A stretch of 56,727 nucleotides of DNA, taken from the NCBI GenBank assembly GCA_964551595.1, contig CAZKCU010000003.1:16030-72756 (forward strand), read 5' to 3'. The notes under the pieces are model-generated. The model saw nothing but the letters and a program-made list of their open reading frames with translations. It was not told the DNA's origin and made no database searches. Source of the stretch: an uncultured Candidatus Saccharibacteria bacterium (lineage in GTDB: Bacteria > Patescibacteriota > Minisyncoccia > Minisyncoccales > CAZKCU01). The position numbers and the translations under genes are program-made. This document shows positions 2,745-56,714 of the stretch, piece by piece. The number at the start of each line of letters is the position of its first letter. Position 1 is the first letter of the stretch.

Positions 2745-3089
2745 ATGAATATTTTAGCCCTTAATCCATCTGTTCCCGTTATTCGGCCTTTAGCTTTAAA
2801 AAGAAAATTTAGCCTGAAAGCTTTCTGGATTTTGAGTTTTATTTCAATAATATCGCTTTTAATATTTTATATTTTTCAGGTAAATAGCATGATTAGAGAG
2901 ACTTATCTGATTCAAAATTATCAAAGAAAAATAAAGGAGCTGTCTCAGGAAAATAAAACTCTGGAGATTAATTTTTTTCAGGCAAATTCCTTATCTACCA
3001 TTGAGAGTTTAGTAAAAAATCTAAATTTTGAAAAAGTAGAACGAATTCATTATATTCAGGTTTTGGAAAGCCAGGTTGTTGCAAAGTAG
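2745..3089 (+). CDS. FtsL-like bitopic membrane/coiled-coil protein
   Basis: Single TM followed by a coiled coil; position between rsmH and ftsI. Confidence 0.65.
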   Translation: MNILALNPSVPVIRPLALKRKFSLKAFWILSFISIISLLIFYIFQVNSMIRETYLIQNYQRKIKELSQENKTLEINFFQANSLSTIESLVKNLNFEKVERIHYIQVLESQVVAK

Positions 3090-15268: not shown

Positions 15269-16660
15269 TTACAACTTCTTAATTTTCGTTCCCTCTTTTG
15301 TATCTTCGGCCCAATAGCCCTTCTTCTTTATTTTTTTCCTGATTTCATCAGCTTTTTGCCATTGTTTTTTTTGACGGTATTCCTCTCTTGCTTTTACTAA
15401 TCTTAAAATATTTTCAGGGATTTTCTTTTTTTCCGGTCTTCCCCAAAATATAAAATTAAAAACTTCGTCAATCTTCCTTAATCGCTTCAGGATTTCTTTG
15501 GCATTTTCGGGGCTTAATTTATTTTGAGCAATCAGAGAATTTCCTTTATTAATTAAATTAAAAACTGAAGCTAAGGCTTTTGAAGTATTGAAATCATTAT
15601 CCATGGCTTTTTCAAATTCCTTTTCATATTTTGAAATTTGAAATTTGGATTTATTTTGGATTTTGGATTTTGTGCTTTGGATCTTTTCTATAAATTCGTC
15701 TATTTTCTCCAATTCTCTTTTTGTTTGCAAAATTAAATTATCATTATAATCAAGAGGAGAGCGATAATGAGTTTTTGTCACCAAAAGCCGTAAAAGGCGA
15801 GGGGAGTGCTCTTTCAGAAACTCTCTTATGGTAATAAAATTACCTAAAGATTTTGCCATCTTTTGGCTTTTTACAGTTAGAAAACCTGAATGAATCCAAT
15901 ATTTGACCATAGGTTTTCTTTTAGATATAGCTTCCATTTGAGAAATTTCAGCTTCGTGGTGAGGGAAAATCAAATCTTTGGCTCCACCGTGAATATTATA
16001 TTGGAAACCGAAATATTTTTCAGTGATAGCTGTATCTTCAATATGCCAACCGGGTCTGCCATGCCCGAAAGGACTTGGCCATTTTGGCTCACCGGGTTTG
16101 GAAAATTTCCAGAGACAAAAATCTCCTTTGTTTCTCTTTTCTTCAGCTGTATCAATTCTGGAAACACCATCTTCAGCCTGCAAAACCGTTCTTCTTGACA
16201 ACTTTCCGTAATCTTTAAATTTCAAAATGTCATAGTAAATACCATCTTTTATTTGATAGGCGTAACCTTTTTTCAAAAGCCTTTCAACCTGACTTATAAT
16301 TTCTTTAATATGGTCTGTAGCTCTGGCGTATTTTGTTACACTATCAATTTTCAAACTTTTCATATCCTTCAAATATTCTTTTTCAAAAAGTAAAGCTAAT
16401 TTTCTTGGAGTCGTTTTTTTCTCTTTTGCTCTAGCGATTATCTTGTCATCAATATCAGTAATATTTTGAAGATAAAAAACATTAAACTTTTTCTCTCTCA
16501 GATATTTTGCAATCACATCAAAAACAATATAGGTCCTGGCATGCCCAATATGGGAGAAATCGTAAACCGTTGGTCCACAGACAAACATATTTACTTTCTT
16601 TGCTTTTTTTGGTCTGAAGATTTCTTTTTTTCGAGACAGAGTATTATAAAGTTTGAGCAT
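15269..16660 (-). CDS. cysS: Cysteine--tRNA ligase
   Basis: CGPTVYDFSHIGHAR, GRPGWHIE, DLIFPHHE, KMAKSLGN. Confidence 0.97.
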   Translation of the reverse strand: MLKLYNTLSRKKEIFRPKKAKKVNMFVCGPTVYDFSHIGHARTYIVFDVIAKYLREKKFNVFYLQNITDIDDKIIARAKEKKTTPRKLALLFEKEYLKDMKSLKIDSVTKYARATDHIKEIISQVERLLKKGYAYQIKDGIYYDILKFKDYGKLSRRTVLQAEDGVSRIDTAEEKRNKGDFCLWKFSKPGEPKWPSPFGHGRPGWHIEDTAITEKYFGFQYNIHGGAKDLIFPHHEAEISQMEAISKRKPMVKYWIHSGFLTVKSQKMAKSLGNFITIREFLKEHSPRLLRLLVTKTHYRSPLDYNDNLILQTKRELEKIDEFIEKIQSTKSKIQNKSKFQISKYEKEFEKAMDNDFNTSKALASVFNLINKGNSLIAQNKLSPENAKEILKRLRKIDEVFNFIFWGRPEKKKIPENILRLVKAREEYRQKKQWQKADEIRKKIKKKGYWAEDTKEGTKIKKL

Positions 16661-16679
16661 AATATTCTATTAAACTATT

Positions 16680-17516
16680 TTACCATAATTCAAGATATCT
16701 TTCAGCTCGATCTGGTAAAACAGTTACTACGTTTTTGTATTTTTTACTTAATCTTAGAGCAGCCAAGACATTTGCTCCCGAAGAAATACCAACCAATAAT
16801 CCTTTCTTTTTGGCTAATTTTTTAGTTATTAAAACAGCATCCTTGCTTTTTATTTTAATTATTTCATCAATTAGGCTAAAATCCAAAATTTTTGGTACTA
16901 TTCCATCACTAATTCCTTCTATTTGATGAGGTGATTCAACAGCTTCCACCCCAATTATTTTTACTTTTGGGAATTTCTCCTTTAGAGTTTTGGTCACCCC
17001 TATTAATGTTCCTCCGGTTCCGATCCCGGCTACAAAAGCATCAATTTTATCAACTTGTTTTAAAATTTCTTTACCTAAACCTCTTCTATGAGCTTTAACA
17101 TTATCAGGATTTTCAAATTGCCTTGGTAACCAAACTTTCTCATATTTTTCCGCTAACTCCTTTGTCTTCTTAATCGCCCCAGATAAATTCTCTTTTTTGG
17201 GAGTTAAAATAAAATTTGCCCCAAATAAACTCATCAGTTTTAGTTTTCTTTTACTTATGTTCTCTGGCACTACTGCTATCATTTTAAACCCTTTTATTGC
17301 TGAAATCATAGCAAAACTAACTCCGGTGTTTCCCGAGGTGGCTTCAATTATTGTATAACCTTTTTTGAGTTCTTCTCTTTCTTCTGCTTTTTCTACCATA
17401 TACTTTGCCATTCTGTCTTTAATGCTACCACTTGGATTAGTGGTTTCTAACTTAGCGTAAATTCGCCCGATTTTAATTAAAGGTGTATTGCCAATTGTAT
17501 CTAAAATATTTTGCAT
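16680..17516 (-). CDS. cysK: Cysteine synthase (PLP-dependent, CysK/CysM family)
   Basis: IGNTPL, AKLETTNPSGSIKDR, EATSGNTG, QFENPDN, GIGTGGT, GISSGAN. Confidence 0.92.
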   Translation of the reverse strand: MQNILDTIGNTPLIKIGRIYAKLETTNPSGSIKDRMAKYMVEKAEEREELKKGYTIIEATSGNTGVSFAMISAIKGFKMIAVVPENISKRKLKLMSLFGANFILTPKKENLSGAIKKTKELAEKYEKVWLPRQFENPDNVKAHRRGLGKEILKQVDKIDAFVAGIGTGGTLIGVTKTLKEKFPKVKIIGVEAVESPHQIEGISDGIVPKILDFSLIDEIIKIKSKDAVLITKKLAKKKGLLVGISSGANVLAALRLSKKYKNVVTVLPDRAERYLELW

Positions 17517-17523
17517 AGTGCTT

Positions 17524-17620
17524 AAACAAAAAGACCTCTCAGAAGAGGCCAGTTGGTTAAGAATTTTATATAAAATTAACTTTATCTAAAAACCAAACTA
17601 ACCTCTTCTCTTAGAGAGGT
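17524..17620 (-). promoter_or_regulatory. Transcription attenuator (protector 1:2, antiterminator 2:3, terminator 3:4)
   Basis: Terminator ggcctct-tctg-agaggtc-tttttgttt (17550-17524). Antiterminator aagaggttagtttggtt pairs with aaccaactggcctctt. Confidence 0.8.
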
Positions 17621-17668
17621 GCAACAATCGCAACAACTAATAGATTTGGGGTTAATCTGAATTTTCAT
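17582..17668 (-). CDS. Cys-rich leader peptide MKIQINPKSISCCDCCTSLREEVSLVFR (28 aa)
   Basis: Four Cys codons in five positions; upstream TTGACA(17707)-17-TAATCT promoter with TG extension; directly upstream of cysK. Confidence 0.8.
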   Translation of the reverse strand: MKIQINPKSISCCDCCTSLREEVSLVFR

Positions 17669-17736
17669 AATCTGTTTTTAGATTAACAACTTCAAGATTA
17701 GTTGTCAAGAACCTTAATTTGTGATAGGATAAAAAA

Positions 17737-18330
17737 ATGAAAAAAGTAGACGCGATAATCAGTATTATAATTGGTTTTTTAATAGGAGTTTTTTTCTTTA
17801 TTGGCTTGAAAAATATCGGAAAAAGCTTTCCTTATAGCTGGGTGCTTTTGATTATTTTTCCTCCCCTTGCCTTACTTGGAATGTTCCTTGCTTCCTATAT
17901 TGGTAAAAAGCTTTTAATTATTTACCAGGCAGCAAAATTTGTTTTGGTAGGGGCTCTTAATACTTTTATTGATTTGGGAGTGCTAAATGGATTAATCTGG
18001 GTTTCAGGAATTGCCACCGGTCTTTCCTTTTCGGTCTTTAAAGGAATCTCTTTTTTGCTCGCAACCTTAAATAGTTATTTCTGGAATAAACACTGGACTT
18101 TTCGCAAAAGAGAGAAAGTTTTTGCTCCCAGGGAATTTTCTAAGTTTTTGGTAGTAACTAGCATTGGTCTTTTTATTAACGTGGGAATTGCTTCTTTTGT
18201 GGTGAATATTATCGGACCTCAATATGGCATAGCAGAGAAAATGTGGGCAAATGTTGGAGCATTCGCTGCCGTTTTATTTGCCTGGGTCTGGAATTTTTTA
18301 GCATCCAAATTTATTGTATTTAAAAAGTGA
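17737..18330 (+). CDS. GtrA family membrane protein
   Basis: KFVLVGALNTFIDLGVLN and NSYFWNKHWTF motifs. Confidence 0.88.
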   Translation: MKKVDAIISIIIGFLIGVFFFIGLKNIGKSFPYSWVLLIIFPPLALLGMFLASYIGKKLLIIYQAAKFVLVGALNTFIDLGVLNGLIWVSGIATGLSFSVFKGISFLLATLNSYFWNKHWTFRKREKVFAPREFSKFLVVTSIGLFINVGIASFVVNIIGPQYGIAEKMWANVGAFAAVLFAWVWNFLASKFIVFKK

Positions 18331-22013: not shown

Positions 22014-22059
22014 ATCTTTTTAGTTAAAAAAAAGCCCACCGCTGGGCAATTTTTATTTA

Positions 22060-22088
22060 TCGCCAAGGTTGCGGTTTTTTGGTAGAAT
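22060..22088 (+). promoter_or_regulatory. Portable hairpin-promoter TCGCCA-17-TAGAAT, leaderless
   Basis: tcgcca-aggttgcggttttttgg-tagaat-aaagt-ATG; same unit at 48594, 49258 and 56681. Confidence 0.7.
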
Positions 22089-23357: not shown

Positions 23358-23604
23358 ATATTTTGCCTGTGGGGGCTTTTTTATAAAAGTATGGTAATTT
23401 TGTGATAGCGAGTATTATTATTATCTTGCTATCAAACACTATCTAATTTTATTTTCTCTTAAGAAAATCGCCAAAAAGGCGATTTTTAATTAGAAAAATT
23501 GACTTATTTTTGAGTCAGTGCTAAAGTTAAAAAGTGGAGGGCTAATTGAAAGCTCTTTTTATATATATAATTTCTAGCAAATGATAGTAAATAAAGGAGA
23601 CAAA

Positions 23605-49257: not shown

Positions 49258-49290
49258 ATCTTACCAAAAAACCGCCTACTTGGCGATTTT
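49258..49290 (-). promoter_or_regulatory. Portable hairpin-promoter, leaderless
   Basis: tcgcca-agtaggcggttttttgg-taagat-gaaaac-ATG. Confidence 0.7.
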
Positions 49291-56680: not shown

Positions 56681-56714
56681 ATTCTACCAAAAAATCGCCT
56701 TCTTGGCGATTTTC
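56681..56714 (-). promoter_or_regulatory. Portable hairpin-promoter, leaderless
   Basis: aaaa-tcgcca-agaaggcgattttttgg-tagaat-ggaaat-ATG. Confidence 0.72.

Follow-up and report, generated by a model that had tools for sequence, protein, structure and literature searches.

A 56,727-nucleotide stretch of DNA, hereafter the window, carries upstream of a cysK-cysS gene pair a compact leader which, as judged from sequence comparison and RNA folding models, is most probably a cysteine-responsive, ribosome-mediated (leader-peptide) transcription attenuator. It would control an operon composed of an upstream open reading frame (uORF), cysK and cysS in a member of the Candidate Phyla Radiation (CPR), or Patescibacteria. 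The sequence elements, their conservation among relatives, the covariation of the stems and a thermodynamic switch between alternative folds were observed directly. The leader features a uORF with a run of Cys codons, a terminator hairpin followed by a U-tract, a mutually exclusive antiterminator which shares region 3 with the terminator, and codons and stop placed as in leader-peptide attenuators. The element thus appears to be an attenuator of the trp/his/pheST type with cysteine specificity, whose novelty, within the literature searched, lies in the combination of cysteine, terminator type and CPR host. Its features, with their predicted roles, are given below; promoter, uORF, pairing regions, U-tract and cysK-cysS all lie on the minus strand.

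17703..17708, minus strand: -35 hexamer TTGACA, read from the sequence
17680..17688, minus strand: extended -10 element TGtTAATCT (TG at 17688-17687, TAATCT at 17685-17680), separated from the -35 hexamer by a 17-nt spacer
17582..17668, minus strand: leader uORF MKIQINPKSISCCDCCTSLREEVSLVFR, 28 codons plus TAA; ATG at 17668, stop TAA at 17584-17582
17621..17635, minus strand: regulatory codons TGT TGC GAT TGT TGC (Cys-Cys-Asp-Cys-Cys), four Cys in five codons
17613..17620, minus strand: region 1 ACCUCUCU, beginning at the nucleotide after the last Cys codon; its partner is region 2 or region 4
17592..17609, minus strand: region 2 AGAAGAGGUUAGUUUGGU, 5' arm of the antiterminator, within the uORF and just 5' of its stop
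17559..17591, minus strand: variable spacer with a small A/U hairpin and, at 17584-17582, the uORF stop
17541..17558, minus strand: region 3 AACCAACUGGCCUCUUCU, shared by the antiterminator (as 3' arm) and the terminator (as 5' arm)
17533..17540, minus strand: region 4 GAGAGGUC, 3' arm of the terminator; its partner is region 3 or region 1
17550-17533, minus strand: terminator GGCCUCU-UCUG-AGAGGUC, the stem before the U-tract
17524..17532, minus strand: U-tract UUUUUGUUU, followed by 7 nt and then by the cysK ATG
16680..17516, minus strand: cysK-like gene of the cysteine synthase family, 278 amino acids (aa), first regulated gene, ATG at 17516
15269..16660, minus strand: cysS, cysteine--tRNA ligase (CysRS), 463 aa, second regulated gene; TIGR00435 at 497 bits against a cut-off of 340

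The leader was looked for in 91 loci encoding relatives of the CysK protein. Among the first 15 loci in which CysK is at least 71% identical to that of the window, 13 had a Cys-run uORF 5' of cysK; at 56-62% identity 2 of 8 loci had one, and at 51% or below none of approximately 39; further members came from later locus look-ups beyond this first set. The total, found on CPR/Patescibacteria contigs, amounts to 16 distinct core leaders (CysK 71-94% identical) and three diverged, recognisable ones (CysK 59-69%), with the runs CCICHPC (L085), CCCCC (L086) and CC...C (L003). TTGACA, or a variant differing at one position, occupies the same place in all 16 homologous leaders, and the pattern TGn plus TAAnnT was found again in most of them; a generic promoter scan missed the -10 element because TAATCT matches TATAAT at only four of six positions. 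The first-pass annotation of this DNA had described the promoter as TTGACA-17-TAATCT, to which the extended -10 TG is added here, and had further proposed an unannotated 28-aa leader with CCDCC at 17635-17621, a region 1 directly after the Cys codons, a terminator with a U-tract ending 7 nt before the cysK ATG, and a leader stop between regions 2 and 3. All of these were recovered in the window. Moreover, its expectation that Cys codons and stems would be kept in relatives was borne out by the 16 distinct and three recognisable leaders, by Cys codons that vary at the wobble position only, and by the covariation of the antiterminator presented below.

The uORF appears to be under constraint as a coding frame, in particular at its Cys codons. 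Cys accounts for 0.94% of the residues in the long open reading frames (ORFs) of the window, and the uORF is the sole small ORF in its 56.7 kb with at least four Cys in six residues; the Cys-run ORF scan returned none elsewhere in the window. A search of 507 kb, covering both strands, gave 26 small ORFs with this property, of which 24 are leader uORFs or the uORF of locus L043, directly 5' of cysK. An in-frame ORF from the ATG to the Cys run is maintained in 19 relatives, with core run variants CCDCC, CCNCC, CCACC, CCNNCC, CCECCC and CCNCCNCC; the number of Cys ranges from 4 to 6, with 5-6 in some lineages. Positions 1 and 2 of the Cys codons are invariant across homologs and position 3 changes only between T and C, since A or G there would make a stop or Trp. 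The codon within the run varies freely and non-synonymously (GAT, GAC, AAT, AAC, GCT and GAG, encoding D, N, A or E), and the distance from the ATG to the run shifts by whole codons only (8, 9, 10 or 11). Peptide length ranges from 16 to 31 residues as the stop moves, lying before or after region 2, and the N-terminus, spacer and C-terminal tail are variable among the 16 leaders. In all 16, the last Cys codon adjoins region 1, and the core of region 2 ends 19 nt further on. Such a fixed spacing from Cys run to pairing region, amid variable flanks, is what a footprint-based sensor would require.

A uORF of this kind might also be kept for its product, a functional Cys-rich micropeptide serving as metal or redox ligand or as precursor of a modified peptide, in which case the stems would be merely a terminator or stabiliser. 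CCxCC does resemble metal-binding motifs and residues outside the Cys run recur (N-Q-I/T-N and SL-K/R-E-G-V), but for the conserved residues that follow the run the codons lie in regions 1 and 2, which points to a constraint at the RNA level. Furthermore, peptide length, the position of the stop relative to region 2, and the number and spacing of Cys all vary; the leader peptides matched no Pfam or NCBIfam family, the leader-peptide models of NCBIfam included; and the ORF always lies between promoter and terminator, ahead of cysteine genes. The micropeptide is consequently given next to no probability. It is also highly improbable that a trans-acting factor (an RNA-binding protein, tRNA or metabolite) binds the CCUCUU/AAGAGG repeats and that the Cys-rich uORF is incidental. 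The four core segments are highly conserved, purine- or pyrimidine-rich and GGA-containing, like some motifs of RNA-binding proteins, and translation of the uORF is a prediction; however, the Cys pattern is of the coding type (variation at the wobble position only, whole-codon insertions and deletions, a retained start codon), the run expands and contracts yet stays beside region 1, no T-box or riboswitch family was matched, and the conservation of the core is accounted for by four mutually complementary segments.

The attenuator reading is further supported by the way in which the leader is distributed. A covariance model built from eight leaders (R1) recovered 8 of 8 held-out members at 64-103 bits, with the window at 64.5 bits (E about 5e-13), and placed the three diverged leaders at 25-31 bits, all in the expected position; it gave no match in loci devoid of the uORF. 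A search with covariance models for a second copy or a regulon, covering the window and the 91 loci (535 kb), returned only the copies upstream of cysK and their antisense echoes. At CysK identities of at least 65%, the leader is present in every locus with cysS after cysK and enough sequence, and the link with cysS survives interruption by a GNAT gene, by an antisense ORF or by an insertion inside cysS; in the loci of this group lacking cysS after cysK (L031, L039, L079/80), the leader is absent in all. This strict link suggests that the homeostasis of charged tRNA(Cys) is defended, rather than cysteine synthesis alone. Distant CPR cysK loci, with a different gene context, had no leader (a Nealsonbacteria-type locus at 63%, another at 64% and one of Staskawiczbacteria at 62%).

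Some individual loci deserve separate mention. L031 (approximately 2925-3000; cysK 74% identical) has neither a downstream cysS nor a uORF and terminator, and retains after its promoter the region-2-like sequence aaggaggttagcttggtt; this suggests a remnant, probably of a leader that decayed after the break-up of the operon. In two distant Patescibacteria cysK loci (59-61%), L043 has at 491-556 a uORF ending in CCCC-stop, no terminator and a good Shine-Dalgarno (SD) sequence before cysK, and L003 has at 335-461 the CC...C run, a second CCC run and a terminator, scoring 29 bits with model R1; their uORFs may be independent or strongly diverged versions.

As regards RNA structure, terminators were located by U-tract anchoring combined with ViennaRNA folding, and pairs were counted on a gapless block alignment anchored on invariant motifs as well as on an unspliced covariance-model alignment. 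Plain MAFFT leader alignments were not used for pair counts, on account of a one-register slip across the variable terminator loop and spacer. The strongest signal comes from the antiterminator, helix 2:3, for which about 16 bp had been proposed in the first-pass annotation and which comprises 18 pairs. Of its alignment cells, 85% are paired, and 11 of the 18 pairs show compensatory changes (27 cells), a result attained in 0 of 500 shuffles; slid registers gave only 38-65% pairing. An alignment-free test agrees with this, as the extension of region 2 pairs with its own region 3 at -4.5 kcal/mol, against -2.6 kcal/mol with those of other homologs (p about 5e-5). Helix 1:4, which had been overlooked at first, is 96% paired with compensatory changes in 3 of 8 pairs (2 of 500 shuffles), an example being L028, in which AUCUCUUU stands opposite AAAGAGAU. 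When 1:4 and 2:3 were taken as nested helices in the unspliced covariance-model alignment, 92% of cells were paired and 12 of 24 pairs were compensatory (0 of 500). The terminator helix 3:4 is 94% paired with 2 of 8 pairs compensatory, and helix 1:2, predicted from the start, is 94.5% paired with 0 of 8; neither value is significant.

The 167-nt leader has a minimum free energy (MFE) of -40.9 kcal/mol, compared with -27.8 +/- 3.5 for dinucleotide shuffles (z -3.78; 0 of 200). The unconstrained MFE structure is a single long hairpin, in which 1:4 encloses 2:3, ending at the U-tract. Taken by itself, such a hairpin on ribosome-free RNA would be in keeping with a constitutive structure devoid of amino-acid sensing, i.e. 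a leaky terminator or a 5' stabilising hairpin which sets a fixed expression level. However, a constitutive structure would have no need for the conserved 3:4 alternative, for an in-frame Cys run abutting the 5' arm or for a stop at or around region 2, and it is regarded as barely credible.

The response predicted for a translating ribosome favours attenuation instead. A ribosome footprint was masked through 10 nt past the first A-site nucleotide, and the remaining RNA was folded up to the U-tract. Across the 16 core leaders, region 4 was predicted to be paired with a probability of 0.73-0.99 in free RNA, and an A site occupied by the first Cys codon left this almost unchanged. The probability dropped to 0.00-0.13 when the last Cys codon occupied the A site, and stood at 0.66-0.99 when the stop codon did; the values for the window were 0.78 when free, 0.01 at the last Cys and 0.97 at the stop. 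Relief of termination is predicted solely for stalling at the last two Cys codons. The switch score of the window is 0.76, compared with a maximum of 0.58 among 400 dinucleotide shuffles, none of which was as large. In the model, all states terminate except that of a ribosome held on the distal Cys codons, which corresponds to trp/his-type logic, with helix 1:4 as an additional lock on RNA that is not being translated. The trp/his-type geometry suggested by the first-pass annotation was thus reproduced by footprint-masked folding in every core member, and its proposal that a shortage of Cys-tRNA de-represses cysK-cysS gains computational support from conservation, covariation and masked folding. 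In none of the folds do the Cys codons take part in more than local pairing, and they do not pair with the start region of cysK.

On these grounds the following course of events is proposed, in which the transcription start, uORF translation, ribosome stalling and in vivo termination are what we infer. Transcription would begin from the extended -10 promoter, and a ribosome would enter the 28-codon leader very close to the 5' terminus of the transcript. When Cys-tRNA(Cys) is ample, the ribosome would pass CCDCC to reach the UAA and cover region 2, allowing 3:4 to pair and transcription to terminate at the U-tract. In RNA not engaged by a ribosome, 1:4 and 2:3 would pair into one long hairpin ending at the U-tract, and the operon would likewise be off. 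When Cys-tRNA(Cys) is scarce, the ribosome would stall when its A site reaches the third or fourth Cys codon, its footprint covering region 1; 2:3 would then pair, region 4 would remain single-stranded, and in the absence of a terminator the polymerase would read through into cysK and cysS. The signal would be charged tRNA(Cys), the joint product of both controlled enzymes, and the element would therefore answer to cysteine supply as well as to CysRS activity, feeding back on both. A U-rich stretch follows the 1:2 hairpin, which might, by inference only, be a pause site synchronising ribosome and polymerase.

The output could alternatively be, mainly or additionally, at the level of translation. 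Regions 2 and 4 (AAGGAAGGGG, AAGAGG) are SD-like, and the ACCUCUU of regions 1 and 3 is similar to the anti-SD end of 16S rRNA; region 4 would in this case be the SD of cysK, hidden in 3:4 or 1:4 and freed by stalling at Cys codons, as for the polycysteine small ORFs (sORFs) of mycobacteria. It is single-stranded in the stalled state and in 11 of 19 leaders ends 9-12 nt 5' of the cysK ATG, and the sole Cys uORFs studied experimentally work in this manner (10.1101/834739). Against this, in the remaining 8 of 19 leaders region 4 is separated from the ATG by 15-62 nt (16 nt from the stem end in the window), SD sequences are rarely used in the genome, the Cys codons are not paired with the cysK start region, and the T run after the stem is invariant and would not be needed for masking an SD. 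A run of at least five T directly follows the stem in all 16 core leaders, and the distance from stem to cysK ATG varies from 9 to 62 nt; together, these two features favour transcription termination as the conserved output. A translational attenuator is accordingly held to be unlikely, and masking of the SD may act in addition to termination in the 11 leaders with a suitably placed region 4. A more far-reaching proposal, doubtful in our view, is that the element, besides being the first intrinsic-terminator cysteine attenuator and the first CPR leader-peptide attenuator reported, acts on two levels, the switch also hiding and exposing the cysK ribosome-binding site or pausing ribosomes by SD mimicry, by means of a leaderless or near-leaderless uORF in a genome largely devoid of SD sequences.

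The uORF itself has no SD sequence. Its ATG lies 11 nt downstream of the -10 element, a spacing found in most members, which gives a predicted 5' untranslated region (UTR) of approximately 4-5 nt. A missing SD was considered as an argument against translation of the uORF and rejected, since an SD-like 4-mer occurs no more than 22 nt from the start in only 8 of the 47 long ORFs of the window, the genome being SD-poor. Many long ORFs of the window have a TAnAAT-like box 5-9 nt 5' of their ATG. This arrangement suggests that leaderless mRNAs are common in the host genome.

Several points weigh against an attenuator. Helices 1:2 and 3:4 are nearly invariant and hence lack the support of covariation; this is explained by regions 1 and 3 both being CCUCUU-like and regions 2 and 4 both AAGAGG-like, so that each has to fit two partners, and the two near-invariant helices neither strengthen nor weaken the case. 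In some members helix 3:4 amounts to a weak hairpin of only -3.8 to -9 kcal/mol, which makes termination efficiency uncertain; weak stems are seen in L028, L082, L084 and L038. Moreover, the folding model is thermodynamic and not kinetic. The SD-less start codon of the uORF, approximately 4-5 nt from the expected start site, would be neither classically leadered nor strictly leaderless. The first gene, a pyridoxal phosphate (PLP) enzyme, scores slightly short of the curated NCBIfam cut-offs for cysK/cysM (TIGR01136 cysKM, 328 bits against 344; TIGR01139 cysK, 317 bits); its PF00291 homologs carry the name cysteine synthase. No cysE was seen among the genes of the window. Finally, cysS is essential, and must have a leaky terminator or a second promoter; modest terminator hairpins fit this need for basal cysS expression.

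Among known systems, the closest counterparts are the leader attenuators of Proteobacteria (trpL, hisL, pheL, thrL, leuL and pheST), which share with the element a short ORF close to the promoter, in which codons for the pathway amino acid are clustered, four segments forming 1:2, a 2:3 antiterminator and a 3:4 terminator with U-tract, and a stop placed in such a way that an unstalled ribosome blocks region 2. As with pheST, a tRNA synthetase would be controlled by how far its cognate tRNA is charged. The element differs from them in its specificity for cysteine, no terminator-type cysteine attenuator having been found in the literature searched, in the covarying 1:4 helix, in the SD-less uORF 11 nt after the -10 element and in its CPR host, and has no sequence or Rfam relationship with them. 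It falls short of the gathering thresholds of the Rfam leader families (Trp_leader, His_leader, Phe_leader, Thr_leader and Leu_leader). An Rfam scan of the region at E <= 10 found no T-box or riboswitch, the best match being Phe_leader at 20.8 bits against a gathering threshold of 55 (E 0.66), and a scan of the whole window at gathering thresholds returned two tRNAs only.

In Firmicutes, Cys-specific T-box leaders occur upstream of cysE-cysS or cysK; these recognise uncharged tRNA directly by means of their specifier loop and T-box motif. The same types of genes, tRNA-Cys charging as signal and a terminator/antiterminator output are found here. Unlike a T-box, the element has neither specifier loop nor T-box motif, and its proposed sensor is the translating ribosome; the leader 3' of the uORF measures only about 60 nt.

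For Mycobacterium, P. acnes and B. longum, Seliverstov et al. (2005, PMC1262725) predicted Cys-rich leader peptides "without obvious terminators". In M. smegmatis, polycysteine leaderless sORFs (Ms5788A and others) act on translation, as the Cys tract pairs with and hides the SD of the next gene (Canestrari et al. 2020, 10.1101/834739), and uORF-mediated cysteine attenuation was previously undescribed according to the same authors (10.1101/834739). A 2026 paper cites for cysteine genes only the translational mechanism of mycobacteria (PMC13236596), and a 2010 survey lists leader peptides solely from Proteobacteria and Actinobacteria and one His case from Firmicutes (PMC2965389). The first-pass annotation had regarded Cys-rich leaders as known mainly from Actinobacteria, and the literature searched reports them only there (PMC1262725, 10.1101/834739); likewise, in agreement with its surmise that none had been described in CPR, nothing relevant to Patescibacteria/CPR attenuation, leader peptides or riboswitches was present among the matches listed. 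The actinobacterial uORFs resemble the element in having consecutive Cys codons in an unannotated uORF ahead of genes of cysteine metabolism and, as far as is predicted here, in little or no 5' UTR and a Cys-stalled ribosome that remodels downstream pairing. The differences are the conserved terminator with U-tract, the covarying antiterminator and the unpaired Cys codons of the element, whose Cys tract does not hide an SD or start codon in the terminator-free manner of mycobacteria; there is no sequence similarity, and the phyla are unrelated.

If correctly interpreted, the element is a protein-free regulatory device, conserved across a clade and with a logic legible from its sequence, that would couple cysteine synthesis and tRNA(Cys) charging to the speed of the ribosome. 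It would extend classical attenuation to a new amino acid and to a new major lineage. CPR/Patescibacteria have tiny genomes with few recognisable regulators and are mostly devoid of amino-acid biosynthesis, and we know of no experimental work on their gene regulation. The comparative and folding results indicate that ribosomes very probably serve these minimal bacteria as sensors of cysteine supply. At approximately 190 nt, the element is also a compact part for the study of CPR promoters, SD-less initiation and termination in heterologous or cell-free systems.

The gene upstream of the leader, gtrA-like (17737-18330, plus strand), is divergent from cysK, so that the terminator cannot belong to a preceding gene. 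The gap between cysK and cysS measures 19 nt, and no terminator was found at this junction when one was looked for. A weak promoter-like match (TTGAAT, 18 nt, TAGAAT; 16664-16693, minus strand) lies at the junction and ends 3 nt 5' of the cysS ATG; it is too near this start codon to serve it as it stands, and as a conceivable source of basal cysS expression it is worth checking. A tRNA-Cys gene beside the locus was ruled out, the two tRNAs of the window being Glu and Gln. The nearest named relatives of CysK are from Patescibacteria, Nealsonbacteria and Staskawiczbacteria, and those of CysRS from Pacebacteria (72-78%) and Nealsonbacteria (69-71%); by these two genes the window, with a G+C content of 34.6%, is assigned to a CPR/Patescibacteria genome.

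Within the leader family, the spacer between regions 2 and 3 is conserved neither in length nor in sequence. In many homologs it is a G-free tandem repeat of approximately 8-nt units (CTAATTTC, TAATTCC, TAATAAC) with TAA in several frames, as seen in L001 (160-195), L028 (approximately 815-845), L029 (approximately 180-225), L030 (approximately 2555-2590), L032, L033, L077 and L081. The genes behind the leader vary as well. The closest relative (L073, 3355-5313, and L074, 2497-4455) has a CysK 94% and a GtrA 93% identical to those of the window and a near-identical leader, together with a CysRS only 38% identical to that at 15269-16660 and a 181-aa GNAT acetyltransferase between cysK and cysS. 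Two types of CysRS, at 36-47% and 63-82% identity to that of the window, occur in the leader family, from which it follows that cysS has been swapped behind the same leader-cysK unit. In L081 (3382-5851) a 308-aa ORF with no Pfam match splits cysS in two, and in L086 (3358-4281) an ORF matching PF00382 (TFIIB) lies antisense between cysK and cysS. L002 (DATKUR010000002.1) is labelled Candidatus Humimicrobiaceae (Actinomycetota), yet its leader-cysK-cysS locus is the same as in L037 and the CPR contigs, and it is probably a mis-binned or mislabelled contig.

Elsewhere in the window, a recurring cassette is located directly 5' of genes at 22059-22075 (plus strand), 49271-49287 (minus), 56694-56710 (minus) and 23467-23483 (plus). 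It consists of a hairpin ATCGCC-AAGnA-GGCG(A/G)T, five to six T and the extended -10-like motif GGTA(A/G)(A/G)AT, with an ATG 5-8 nt further on, and might serve as a combined terminator and promoter or, in the place of a -35 element, as an operator.

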